64,000 nucleotides of DNA from a virus (Duplodnaviria > Caudoviricetes), in the IMG/VR virus record IMGVR_UViG_2791354790_000006, positions 1 to 64,000 of that record; one strand, 5' to 3'. Below are positions 60,838 to 64,000 of this stretch, one piece after another. Under the pieces are notes generated by a model, which was not told the DNA's origin, made no database searches, and saw only the letters and a list, made by a program, of their open reading frames with translations. Positions within the stretch are counted from its first letter, which is position 1; each line of letters starts with the position of its first letter. Made by a program: the position numbers and the translations under genes.

Positions 60838-61707
60838 TTAACTGCCGAAAAAGCCAGCAGGTAACGCACCTTCTGCACCTGCATCGTTGTATGTATAGTA
60901 CTCTAGAGAATAACGTTTAAATTGACGTTCTAGACTCTTTGTGAACTCCCCCTCGGGGAGAGTGTTTATACTTTCCAAAACAACGCCCTCCATTGAAGAA
61001 AATATCCCTTTTATTCTTTCAACCATTGCAGGTACATTATTTTTCATAACCTGAGCTAATTCACGCCCTCGAAAACTTTCAGGAATGGTTAGCACTATTG
61101 ACAGATTATATTTTATCTCATCATCTAACTCTTCGTCAGTTGAGAGGGCAAAGTGCACACCTGAGCAACAATTAACATAATCATCACTTTTCCACATTTT
61201 TTTCAACAACTTATCCTTGCTGGCAATTCTCCTGTTAAATGCATCTGGAAAAGTAGCCTGGTTAAATCGCCCGCTGATCCAATTAAGAAGGCACTCTAAA
61301 GCCAAGGGACCCCACTTTAACTTCAAATTTGGGGTGCTATTTTTTAAGAGAAACTCTCTTTCTATTTGGGCGAATCCAAGCGAAGAAATCTCCATCCACT
61401 TGACATTATCTTCACCATCAACAAAATATGGCAAACATAATCTGCGAGGGTTTCTGGCATTCTTAAACTCCGAACGTTCGTCACATGGGGTACCTATCAC
61501 TACTTGCACCCAATGTTCTCTTTCGAAGTCCATATCGATCAAAGCACATTCATATAATACCGGAATCAAAACTGCATCTTTCTCGGTATATAATGATGCT
61601 AGTTTTTCAGGTAATGTGGCTAAGAGTGCGGGATGATTAAAGAGACTCACGAATGATCCTCTCATCCATCCCGCCTTGATTAACTCCTCTCGATTTAACC
61701 CTGACAT
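60838..61707 (-). CDS. Uncharacterised 289-aa protein, gene 3 of AT-rich operon (candidate effector)
   Basis: GGAGGG RBS; motifs GWMRGS, YECAL, KNARNPRRL, NWISGRFNQATFPDAFNRR. Confidence 0.8.
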   Translation of the reverse strand: MSGLNREELIKAGWMRGSFVSLFNHPALLATLPEKLASLYTEKDAVLIPVLYECALIDMDFEREHWVQVVIGTPCDERSEFKNARNPRRLCLPYFVDGEDNVKWMEISSLGFAQIEREFLLKNSTPNLKLKWGPLALECLLNWISGRFNQATFPDAFNRRIASKDKLLKKMWKSDDYVNCCSGVHFALSTDEELDDEIKYNLSIVLTIPESFRGRELAQVMKNNVPAMVERIKGIFSSMEGVVLESINTLPEGEFTKSLERQFKRYSLEYYTYNDAGAEGALPAGFFGS

Positions 61708-61729
61708 CCCTTAACCCTCCAATTACTAG

Positions 61730-62925
61730 GGAAGGTGCGAATAAGCAGGTCATTTCTTCCCAAGCTGACTCGCTGATTAAAATTTCGCGGATCTGGGCCG
61801 ATTTTTTTCCCGCAAACACATCGAATCAGCCTATTTAGGCTATTTTTTCCACCATTTCTGGCGTTATTTCCGGTTTTTACTGAGATCTCTCCCACTGACG
61901 TATCATTTGGTCCACCCGAAACAGGTTGGCCAGGGTGAATAACATCGCCAGTTGGTTATCGTTTTTCAGCAGCCCTTTGTATCTGGCTTTCACGAAGCCG
62001 AACTGCCGCTTGATGATGCGAAACGGGTGCTCCACCCTGGCACGGATGCTGGCTTTCATGTATTCGATGTTGATGGCCGTTTTGTTCTTGCGCGGATGCT
62101 GCTTCAAGGTTTTTACCCTGCCGGGACGCTCGGCGATCAGCCAGTCCACATCCACCTCGGCCAGCTCCTCGCGCTGTGGCGCTCCTTGGTAGCCGGCATC
62201 GGCTGAGACAAATTGCTCCTCTCCATGAAGCAGATTACCCAGCTGATTGAGGTCATGCTCGTTGGCCGCGGTGGTGACTAGGCTGTGGGTCAGGCCACTC
62301 TTGGCATCGACACCAATGTGGGCCTTCATGCCAAAGTGCCACTGATTGCCTTTCTTGGTCTGATGCATCTCCGGATCGCGTTGCTGCTCTTTGTTCTTGG
62401 TAGAGCTGGGTGCCTCAATGATGGTGGCATCCACCAAAGTGCCTTGGGTCATCATGACGCCTGCTTCGGCCAGCCAGCGATTGATGGTCTTGAACAATTG
62501 ACGGGCCAGTTGATGCTGCTCGAGCAGGTGGCGGAAATTCATGATGGTGGTGCGATCCGGCAGGGCGCTATCCAGGGATAATCGGGCAAACAGGCGCATG
62601 GAGGCGATTTCGTACAGGGCATCTTCCATGGCACCGTCGCTCAGGTTGTACCAATGCTGCATGCAGTGAATACGCAGCATGGTCTCCAGCGGATAGGGCC
62701 GTCGGCCATTGCCCGCCTTGGGATAAAACGGCTCGATGACAGCGGTCATATTCTGCCATGGCAGAATCTGCTCCATGCGGGAGAGGAAAATCTCTTTTCG
62801 GGTCTGACGGCGCTTAGTGCTGAATTCACTATCGGCGAAGGTGAGTTGATGGCTCATGATGTCCCTCTGGGATGCGCTCCGGATGAATATGATGATCTCA
62901 TATCAGGAACTTGTTCGCACCTTCC
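61730..62925 (-). mobile_element. IS5-family insertion sequence (ISKpn26-like), 1196 bp
   Basis: 16-bp IRs GGAAGGTGCGAA(T/C)AAG; CTAG duplication at 61726-61729 and 62926-62929. Confidence 0.95.
61877..62857 (-). CDS. IS5-family DDE transposase
   Basis: [12 protein letters not shown]..., VDATII, ADAGY and RARVEHPF motifs. Confidence 0.96.
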
Positions 62926-63540
62926 CTAGGCCAATCTGGCTCTAACCGAATACCCTTCAATCTGCGCATAAATGTCATAATACGCATCGACCATTTTATT
63001 AAGATCTAATGGTTCTTCATAGAACGCCGTTCTAATCCCCTCATTACCCATTTTCCCAAAAATAAATTTCTTCAGATATGGCGCGTGGCTTATATCCATT
63101 TCCTTATAGAAAGCTTCAAATGCATTTATTCTTGATATGGTTGCATTTTTTATTCTAGTTTCTTTTTTACCATTCCAATTGTAAATCGTTTTTCTTTCCA
63201 CCTTAAGTAACGAAGCCCATTGAGATACGTTAAAGTTGAATCCCTTCTGTAAAGCATTGCTTTTTTCGATGGCACTTGGTTCTTTTTTTACATCAATTTT
63301 CGATGAAGAATTATAGTTTCTTACAATTGGTTTAATTTCAACAGGAGATGCTCCAGTCATTGAACCAACATTTAATAAACTAGATAAAGCGAAAACACCT
63401 AAAAGGGCCTTACCAACGACAGTGCCTAAATTTTTTCGCGCCTCAATAGTATTGTTGGTTGTCTTGTATGATTGCGCAGAACTAGCCGGCAAAAATGGTC
63501 CGGTACCGATTTTTATCCCGCTTGTAACGAAACCAGTCAT
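62926..63540 (-). CDS. HTH-containing protein, gene 2 of AT-rich operon (candidate antitoxin/regulator)
   Basis: AGGAGG RBS; NVSQWASLLKVERKTIYNW Xre-like HTH preceded by a low-complexity/hydrophobic N-terminus. Confidence 0.78.
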   Translation of the reverse strand: MTGFVTSGIKIGTGPFLPASSAQSYKTTNNTIEARKNLGTVVGKALLGVFALSSLLNVGSMTGASPVEIKPIVRNYNSSSKIDVKKEPSAIEKSNALQKGFNFNVSQWASLLKVERKTIYNWNGKKETRIKNATISRINAFEAFYKEMDISHAPYLKKFIFGKMGNEGIRTAFYEEPLDLNKMVDAYYDIYAQIEGYSVRARLA

Positions 63541-63549
63541 ACTAACCTC

Positions 63550-64000
63550 CTATAATACTATGTGTTTGAATATTGCATTAGATGCAACTCTTAACTCATT
63601 GAGTTTATTTGATATAACGTCAAGATTAAACTCTTCCATCCTATCTTCTAAAAAATAAAATGAATCTATATCGACATGTGCTACAACCCCAGCATCAATA
63701 TCAACTGGATTTAATATGTCAGAAGCAAGTTCTGCAAGTTCTGGTGTAATTTTAGGGCCATTGATAACGACACCGCTATTTATACTCAAGAAATATCTTT
63801 TCTCCATATCTTCGTACCTAGAAGAAAGATTGCTTCCTCCCCTATTATAACCATCAATTATAGGCTGTAAGAATTCAGTTCGATTAATACCAAATTCATT
63901 CGATAAGTCAGCTGAATGTGGAAACTTATTTAAAAATCTCATCCCTATAAAAGAAAAATGCGATATGCCCAGAGCTTCCTGAAGAGAAGATAAAAGCTTT
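63550..64000 (-). CDS. TIGR04255-like protein, gene 1 of operon (5' end outside window)
   Basis: Frame open to window edge (KLLSSLQEALGISHFSFIGMRFLNKF); IGMRFLN and VDIDSF...LNELR....IF resemble family motifs. Confidence 0.65.
   Translation of the reverse strand, partial: KLLSSLQEALGISHFSFIGMRFLNKFPHSADLSNEFGINRTEFLQPIIDGYNRGGSNLSSRYEDMEKRYFLSINSGVVINGPKITPELAELASDILNPVDIDAGVVAHVDIDSFYFLEDRMEEFNLDVISNKLNELRVASNAIFKHIVL

Follow-up and report, generated by a model that had tools for sequence, protein, structure and literature searches.

What is the function of a three-gene operon that sits in the nin region of a lambdoid prophage and matches no named system? The operon lies at the end of a 64,000-nt window (the whole stretch of DNA analysed here, bases 1-64000 of the 78,940-base virus record IMGVR_UViG_2791354790_000006; coordinates preceded by G000 refer to the whole record). 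A preliminary description had proposed it as a candidate defence or toxin-antitoxin-chaperone system that consists of a TIGR04255-like protein (gene 1), a protein with a helix-turn-helix (HTH) domain (gene 2), and a 289-residue protein (gene 3). We find that this trio is a real, widespread module. We give even chances to the reading that this conserved operon is a toxin-antitoxin switch which depends on a helper protein and defends against phage. The features on which this rests are:

63550..64000 (complete gene G000 64317-63550), minus strand: gene 1, TIGR04255 protein of 255 aa, predicted helper or sensor; the window contains just its final 149 codons, and the start lies past the window end
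63541..63551, minus strand: ribosome-binding site (RBS) AGGAGG for gene 2, which overlaps the gene 1 stop codon
62926..63540, minus strand: gene 2, 204 aa, with a low-complexity leader of about 90 residues, an HTH, and a C-terminal domain of helices; likely an antitoxin that represses its own operon
63271..63540, minus strand: leader of gene 2 (residues 1-90), with a hydrophobic stretch (residues 38-52) at 63385-63429
60838..61707, minus strand: gene 3, 289 aa, likely toxin, with a predicted MazF/Kid/CcdB/ToxN-fold domain (residues 12-152) and a predicted minimal-nucleotidyltransferase-like domain (residues 152-270)

The three minus-strand open reading frames (ORFs) have a GC content of 33%, 37%, and 40%, respectively, compared to 53% for the adjacent phage genes (window 50000-60000). 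The TAG of gene 1 overlaps the AGGAGG sequence and is spaced 9 nt from gene 2. An insertion sequence (IS) now separates genes 2 and 3 (see below). Between its CTAG target site and the ATG of gene 3 there are 18 nt which include GGAGGG, and an identical 18-nt gap is found in the IS-free relative L002. Thus, the three co-oriented AT-rich genes, the spacings, and the RBSs are all as the preliminary description had it, and so is the location. The trio is placed between a DnaC-like gene and the genes for DUF1367, NinG, and antiterminator Q, which is the nin region, and repressor and replication genes complete the lambdoid context (the DnaC-like, repressor, and replication labels are our reading of the ORFs). 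A promoter and terminator scan returned 12 and 6 sites, with 9.9 and 4.0 expected by chance, and none passing upstream of gene 1. Public runs of RNA type contain just 6-15% of the query words.

Gene 1 is a member of TIGR04255, as had been suspected from its sequence (82.1 bits against a curated cut-off of 30, E 5e-23, model positions 4-241 of 252). In 21/21 loci that were reached through gene 3, a TIGR04255 gene is followed by a leader-HTH gene and then by the gene 3 homologue, always in this order. These loci come from 10 viral contigs, two genomes, one phage-labelled contig, and eight plasmid records; seven new ones among 11 plasmid matches and one of two phage matches were examined. Two duplicates of L010 (L013, L040) and two loci from unpublished genomes (L092, L102) had been dropped before counting. 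The genera represented are Acinetobacter, Klebsiella, Pseudomonas, Vibrio, Robbsia, Mesorhizobium, Gloeocapsa, and Meiothermus, and the trio is spread over phages, Proteobacteria, Cyanobacteria, and Deinococcota. RefSeq had independently named the first gene TIGR04255 in all eight plasmid records.

The mechanism that we propose is modelled, by analogy, on the logic of the toxin-antitoxin-chaperone (TAC) systems HigBAC and CmdTAC, with reversed geometry and a different helper. The products of genes 2 and 3 would form an inhibited complex which represses the operon at GTGTAA repeats. Gene 1 would bind the N-terminal leader of gene 2 and so keep gene 2 in solution and protect it from loss. If a phage protein competed for gene 1, the leader would be left exposed, gene 2 would be lost, and gene 3, once freed from it, would arrest the infected cell. 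We consider it probable that gene 3 is toxic with gene 2 as its antitoxin. A role of the trio in phage defence seems rather likely, and the balance tips slightly toward gene 1 acting by binding of the gene 2 leader.

In the TAC systems, as described in the accessible part of the source (10.1101/2024.02.24.581848; PMC11618068), a disordered tail of the antitoxin makes the pair depend on the chaperone, and phage proteins compete for that chaperone. The same text describes three genes, an antitoxin with a long, low-complexity, variable extension, and a helper family common to exchangeable pairs, all of which are also seen with the trio. However, the helper is SecB-like there, whereas the trio has TIGR04255 (255 aa), for which no relation to SecB was detected, and the extension is C-terminal there but N-terminal in the trio, where the helper gene comes first. 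The trio also has a predicted MazF-fold toxin with an extra domain. By analogy, it likely works like a TAC system, and there is a fair chance that it represents a class of its own.

Comparative support for a helper role of gene 1 comes from its relatives. TIGR04255 was detected in 32/401 and 47/401 sampled genomes (the second count takes in four unpublished genomes). We examined 56 loci, which were the best-scoring ones of these two samples after duplicates and two unpublished loci were left out. The trio is encoded in 16 of them, a WDGY-domain protein plus an ART-like protein in 12, a second PemK-like type in nine, and a papain-like type in six; four have the middle gene alone, as judged by hidden Markov model (HMM), and nine are without a match to the profiles used. 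The labels "ART-like," "papain-like," and "PemK-like" are our own, given from sequence motifs, and have no Pfam match. Six of the nine profile-less loci have a third gene for a toxin or nuclease that is named by Pfam: PemK (L024, E 1e-18), PIN (L081, L084), HNH (L083, L089), and YhaV (L094, E 7e-46). In the middle protein of L094, the last 42 residues align to canonical PrlF (PrlF E 0.006; compared with a PrlF-like protein from L025), and an unrelated 85-residue leader replaces the N-terminal half of PrlF.

On the simplest reading of these sequences, it is the leader that TIGR04255 serves, and an ordinary toxin-antitoxin pair is recruited when it gains a leader. TIGR04255 thus has the look of a common helper behind which toxin-antitoxin pairs can be exchanged, the mirror image of TAC systems. 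The preliminary description had suggested a chaperone-dependent antitoxin. This gains comparative support, since TIGR04255 heads many different antitoxin-toxin pairs in which the antitoxin has an N-terminal leader; a TAC system of the HigBAC/CmdTAC type is not supported by gene 1, in which no relation to SecB was detected.

As a separate observation, the best natural case of a grafted leader is L094:2244-3091, where TIGR04255 is followed by a protein that joins a leader to the C-terminal portion of PrlF, and then by a clear YhaV toxin. In loci L018-L020, L022, L075, and L077, TIGR04255 is accompanied by an unknown helical middle protein and a third protein of 214-233 aa with the motifs H-V/I-G, H-L-A/G-W, and G-L-T-C. 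We take this third protein to be papain-like; Pfam had no match for the scanned members of the group.

For gene 3, a PemK/MazF-like effector had been suggested, and the predicted structure agrees with this. The model has a predicted local distance difference test score (pLDDT) of 93.6 and comprises two domains. When residues 12-152 were compared to 48,161 chains, the top 11 were MazF-fold toxins (MazF, Kid, CptN, CcdB; Z 8.2-6.5), the best one with Z 8.2 and a root-mean-square deviation (rmsd) of 3.5 over 113 of 118 residues. Foldseek assigned probabilities of 0.87-0.99 to matches of this domain, with E-values of just 0.01-0.06. Residues 152-270 gave weak matches to minimal nucleotidyltransferases, a chain of the MafB/MafI complex, and CDF C-terminal domains (Z 5.3-6.4; nucleotidyltransferase fold, Z 5.3-5.8). 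The catalytic motif of minimal nucleotidyltransferases is GS...DxD. Columns 182-209 of the second domain contain the conserved residues G183, E193, and Y200 and no conserved aspartate pair, so that the domain, judged from its sequence, looks inactive as a nucleotidyltransferase.

The gene 3 family is large (1,487 clusters at 50% identity in a profile search). Cys54 and Arg88 are invariant in 149/149 family sequences at about 22% identity, and Glu64, Trp143, and Arg147 are nearly invariant. None of these 149 members matched Pfam PemK (PF02452) at E 0.01. Pfam, NCBIfam, and PADLOC name no family for gene 3 or its 148 aligned homologues, with one stray PADLOC match among the 149. A sequence search of gene 3 against solved structures returned bromodomain noise alone. 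RNA is the most likely target of gene 3, via a non-canonical site around Cys54 and Arg88. Our best guess is an RNase with altered chemistry, and action by CcdB-like protein binding is possible.

The toxins of MazEF, PemIK, and CcdAB (type II) and of ToxIN and CptIN (type III) have the fold predicted for residues 12-152. Gene 3 differs from them by the lack of a PemK Pfam match among the 149 members, by an invariant Cys and Arg and an apparent lack of conserved catalytic Arg/Thr, by its fused C-terminal domain, and by its HTH-type partner. Comparison of the gene 3 profile with the second PemK-like group resulted in 3.9% probability, with Q-G and S-x-x-C-D motifs in the same register, which is a weak likeness. 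One gene 3 homologue (L009:5962-6294) stops after 110 aa near a contig end and is truncated or broken.

Gene 2 had been described as an Xre-like HTH protein behind a biased leader with one hydrophobic stretch, and both elements were confirmed. The residues S/T/G/P/N/A make up 53% of its first 75 positions and charged residues 12%, compared to 35% and 28% in the rest of the protein. The hydrophobic stretch (residues 38-52) has a mean Kyte-Doolittle (KD) value of 1.89 (p 0.17 when compared with shuffled versions of just this leader). Across 17 homologues, conservation at residues 41-72 is close to that of the HTH and the C-terminal domain, and residues 1-40 and 73-90 are more variable. The HTH of gene 2 itself was matched weakly (MADS1 HTH, E 0.014). 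Its homologues match HTH_3, Xre-like-HTH, and related models, with V, R, T, Y, and W invariant within the HTH. The C-terminal domain is conserved up to the last residues in close homologues, which end in RA[RK]LA or similar; such an end (RARLA/RAKLA) resembles ClpXP tags. CmdA ends in LAA according to the accessible text on CmdTAC (10.1101/2024.02.24.581848; PMC11618068).

Antitoxins commonly repress their own operon, and a putative operator is found upstream of gene 1, past the window:

G000 64352-64391 (L001:5353-5392): two direct AGTGTGTAA repeats, 31 nt apart, with cores at 64352-64357 and 64383-64388

The sequence AGTGTGTAA occurs twice in the whole record, both times upstream of gene 1, and is conserved in HTH-type relatives. 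The motif GTGTA[AT] is present within 250 nt upstream in 22/29 HTH-type loci, compared to 3/39 TIGR04255 loci with other partners. For these counts, L002-L010 were counted once, L014 was left out (it has no upstream DNA), and L078 and L039 were placed in the HTH class; the loci are not fully independent, yet they come from several phyla. In a sample drawn after the motif had been chosen, it was found in 8/12 HTH-type loci and in 1/15 others (p 0.003). Because the motif is tied to HTH-type loci, autorepression by gene 2 is suggested, with GTGTA[AT] as its likely operator.

Several points weigh against a helper-dependent toxin-antitoxin switch. The HMMs which class the loci were built partly from those same loci. 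The fold scores of the gene 3 model are middling (Z 8), and no Arg is conserved before, or Thr after, the strands expected, from MazF motifs, to bear the catalytic residues. A stretch with KD of at least 1.7 is present in just 12/20 HTH-type leaders and 4/17 other leaders, and the leaders therefore share no single motif. Profile comparison of gene 1 with five SecB sequences gave less than 1% probability, and the polar residues kept in gene 1 (Tyr95, Arg127, Asn/Asp130, Asp216, Asp218) could mark a ligand or enzyme site.

The last point bears on an alternative in which gene 1 is not a holding chaperone. It would have the guanido-kinase/glutamine-synthetase fold and would either modify the leader as an enzyme or, as a switch that binds nucleotides, read a nucleotide signal. 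The AlphaFold model of gene 1 (54 sequences, pLDDT 90.7) has a saddle-shaped alpha/beta fold with no strong match to any structure. Over the full length, it is most similar to arginine, creatine, and taurocyamine kinases and to McsB (Z 8.0-8.9 over 166-185 residues, rmsd 3.5-4.3). McsB marks proteins for degradation. Distant relatives of gene 1 conserve Tyr95, Gly125-Arg127-Tyr128-Asn/Asp130, and Asp216/Asp218, including the motifs GLRYxN and LDID. We nevertheless consider an enzymatic gene 1 unlikely: there is no sequence link (less than 1% probability against two guanido kinases, obtained with a shallow alignment; no match in a sequence search of the PDB), the EEDH/EEDQ motif of the kinases has no counterpart in the conserved columns, and TBP and S-adenosylmethionine decarboxylase score nearly equally (Z 7.5). 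Pfam SecB has no match in 54 gene 1 family members, and SecB is not among the structural matches listed for the whole chain, where other folds lead. A profile comparison of the two halves of gene 1 detected no internal repeat. The predicted fold neither proves nor excludes a chaperone role.

The genomic sites are informative about a second alternative, that the trio is a three-part addiction or maintenance module which mobile elements carry for their own upkeep and which does not act on incoming phage. Mobile DNA is known to be stabilised by toxin-antitoxin pairs, and the trio does occur on prophages and plasmids. However, addiction does not need a third conserved partner, and the trio sits in variable phage hotspots, namely in lambdoid nin regions (L002-L004) and P2-like replication-portal gaps (L005-L009; labels read from the ORFs), and in other loci it lies beside defence genes, with type I restriction-modification, SLATT, RES, and VapBC genes as neighbours. 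Such variable phage slots and defence-gene neighbourhoods are typical of defence cassettes. TIGR04255 also has model-based defence scores. In the available tables of DefensePredictor (PMC13092281), TIGR04255 proteins are listed as predicted novel defence genes (Table S4; two of eight rows, log-odds 9.3 and 7.4) and as positive neighbours (Table S3). We thus regard a pure addiction module as rather improbable. No tested unit is named TIGR04255 in Table S6 of that work (PMC13092281), of which other supplements may mention such loci.

According to a third alternative, gene 3 is a non-catalytic sensor or scaffold, gene 1 binds nucleic acid through a TBP/Rep-like saddle, and the three genes together serve as a regulator or as a defence complex that follows another logic. 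This would fit with the apparent lack of conservation of the canonical catalytic residues of MazF and nucleotidyltransferases, and gene 1 does also match TBP and a Rep initiator (Z 6.6-7.5). We nonetheless hold it to be quite improbable, as recognised toxins fill the third slot behind TIGR04255 in other loci, and invariance of Cys54 and Arg88 at such low identity is as expected of an active site.

The least likely alternative takes the leader for a membrane anchor or a pseudo signal peptide. Gene 1 would shield the antitoxin from the Sec machinery or the membrane, so that upon triggering the antitoxin would be removed by mistargeting and not by a protease: the stretch of 15 hydrophobic residues in the gene 2 leader follows basic residues, and also occurs in some unrelated antitoxins (L027, L032, L035, L046), and residues 41-72 are strongly conserved in close homologues, but 8/20 HTH-type and 13/17 other leaders are without the stretch, it begins 38 residues in, which is far for a Sec signal, and the gene 2 end, as stated above, resembles ClpXP tags.

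Returning to the helper-dependent switch, we compared the trio with other described or candidate systems. PADLOC (2023 library) had no match for the three genes at E 1. No named system was matched in Pfam or PADLOC, NCBIfam gave TIGR04255 alone, and PHROGs gave unknown-function families alone, in agreement with the earlier statement that the trio is not a recognised system. A viral structure library gave one unnamed partial match, which is uninformative. In the openly accessible literature, no text was found with TIGR04255, CHP04255, or IPR026349, and among articles on TAC, chaperone addiction, and three-gene PemK systems no title or abstract start describes the trio. The terms sought were not present in the available part of PMC13586616. 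Apparently, the trio has so far been undescribed.

Three further systems are close. DS-42 (PRO1) of DefensePredictor is an E. coli three-gene cassette which encodes an effector, a 238-aa unknown protein, and a 190-aa protein whose N-terminal half is rich in Ser/Thr, and was validated on Bas1 (-log efficiency of plating 1.1, with small plaques; one table row of PMC13092281). It resembles the trio in layout; its effector is an MBL hydrolase, and the available entry has no HTH annotated. In the PADLOC candidate PDC-M32, the C-terminal WDGY-type domain and its partner match the pair that follows TIGR04255 in other loci (E 6e-8 to 0.02). However, PDC-M32A has another N-terminal domain, no TIGR04255 neighbour was seen in L054, and the trio genes do not match PDC-M32, which in the accessible text of PMC12429752 is merely listed. 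GajC of Type II Gabija, going by its description in the available part of PMC13069673, has a MazF-like fold with an insertion and is used in anti-phage defence, but its partner is a UvrD helicase, with no TIGR04255 or HTH. As an aside, the PDC-M32 pair of L054 (1501-3043) is directly behind a type I methyltransferase-like gene, and the WDGY/ART-like core is common to 12 TIGR04255 loci.

More tentatively, TIGR04255 may mark a second class of toxin-antitoxin immune systems addicted to a helper, one that is widespread and arose independently. A sensor of guanido-kinase/TBP fold would control any antitoxin with a grafted N-terminal leader and would thereby couple the detection of phage to effectors of the MazF-fold, YhaV, PIN, HNH, ART-like, and papain-like kinds. 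The trio would be among the commonest forms, and its MazF-fold effector would use new chemistry centred on a cysteine. If this holds, one testable rule would give a role to TIGR04255, to the gene 3 family, and to numerous toxin pairs that are now orphans. Antitoxins would then have come to depend on a helper twice in evolution, with mirrored geometry; the leader would be an N-terminal control element that can be transferred, and TIGR04255 a new scaffold for sensing phage.

In the record itself, the operon is interrupted:

61730..62925, minus strand: IS5-family (ISKpn26-type) element of 1196 nt, with the transposase at 62857-61877 and CTAG duplicated at 61726-61729 and 62926-62929

The element is 99% identical to ISKpn26-family IS5 elements and has terminal inverted repeats. 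The duplicated CTAG target includes the stop codon of gene 2. Genes 1 and 2 stay intact, and the element likely lowers or silences gene 3 by putting 1.2 kb between this gene and its promoter. Position 61725 is joined straight to 62926 in contigs from 8/8 public runs (eight studies), with flanks differing by at most one letter, which indicates that the insertion is recent and that the IS-free operon is commoner among these runs. An intact operon is present in many public runs. Among the matches listed for complete E. coli genomes, the IS alone matched, and none reached 80% query coverage. In run X8, a contig ends inside gene 3 (window 61125-61128) and carries 25 nt of an IS end, a hint of a separate insertion. 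We draw no conclusion from this IS end at 61128 because in another public run an IS end is joined at 60382, outside the operon and inside a 95-aa ORF, and because these samples have many IS copies.

The 95-aa ORF (window 60260-60547, minus strand; phrog_23640, function unknown) is located between gene 3 and DUF1367. It was rejected as a member of the module since it had no tblastn match in L002-L009. Two further ORFs were noted. One of 138 aa (window 57194-57610, plus strand; phrog_1244, unknown) is antisense to the late operon, between Q and holin-like genes, and has a CxxC...CxxC end. The other, AT-rich (38%) and of 384 aa, is past the window and directly behind the phage repressor gene (G000 69501-70655, L001:10503-11657, plus strand). 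It is without a PADLOC match, its N-terminal half looks like a restriction-enzyme-type domain, and it is possibly a second defence gene.

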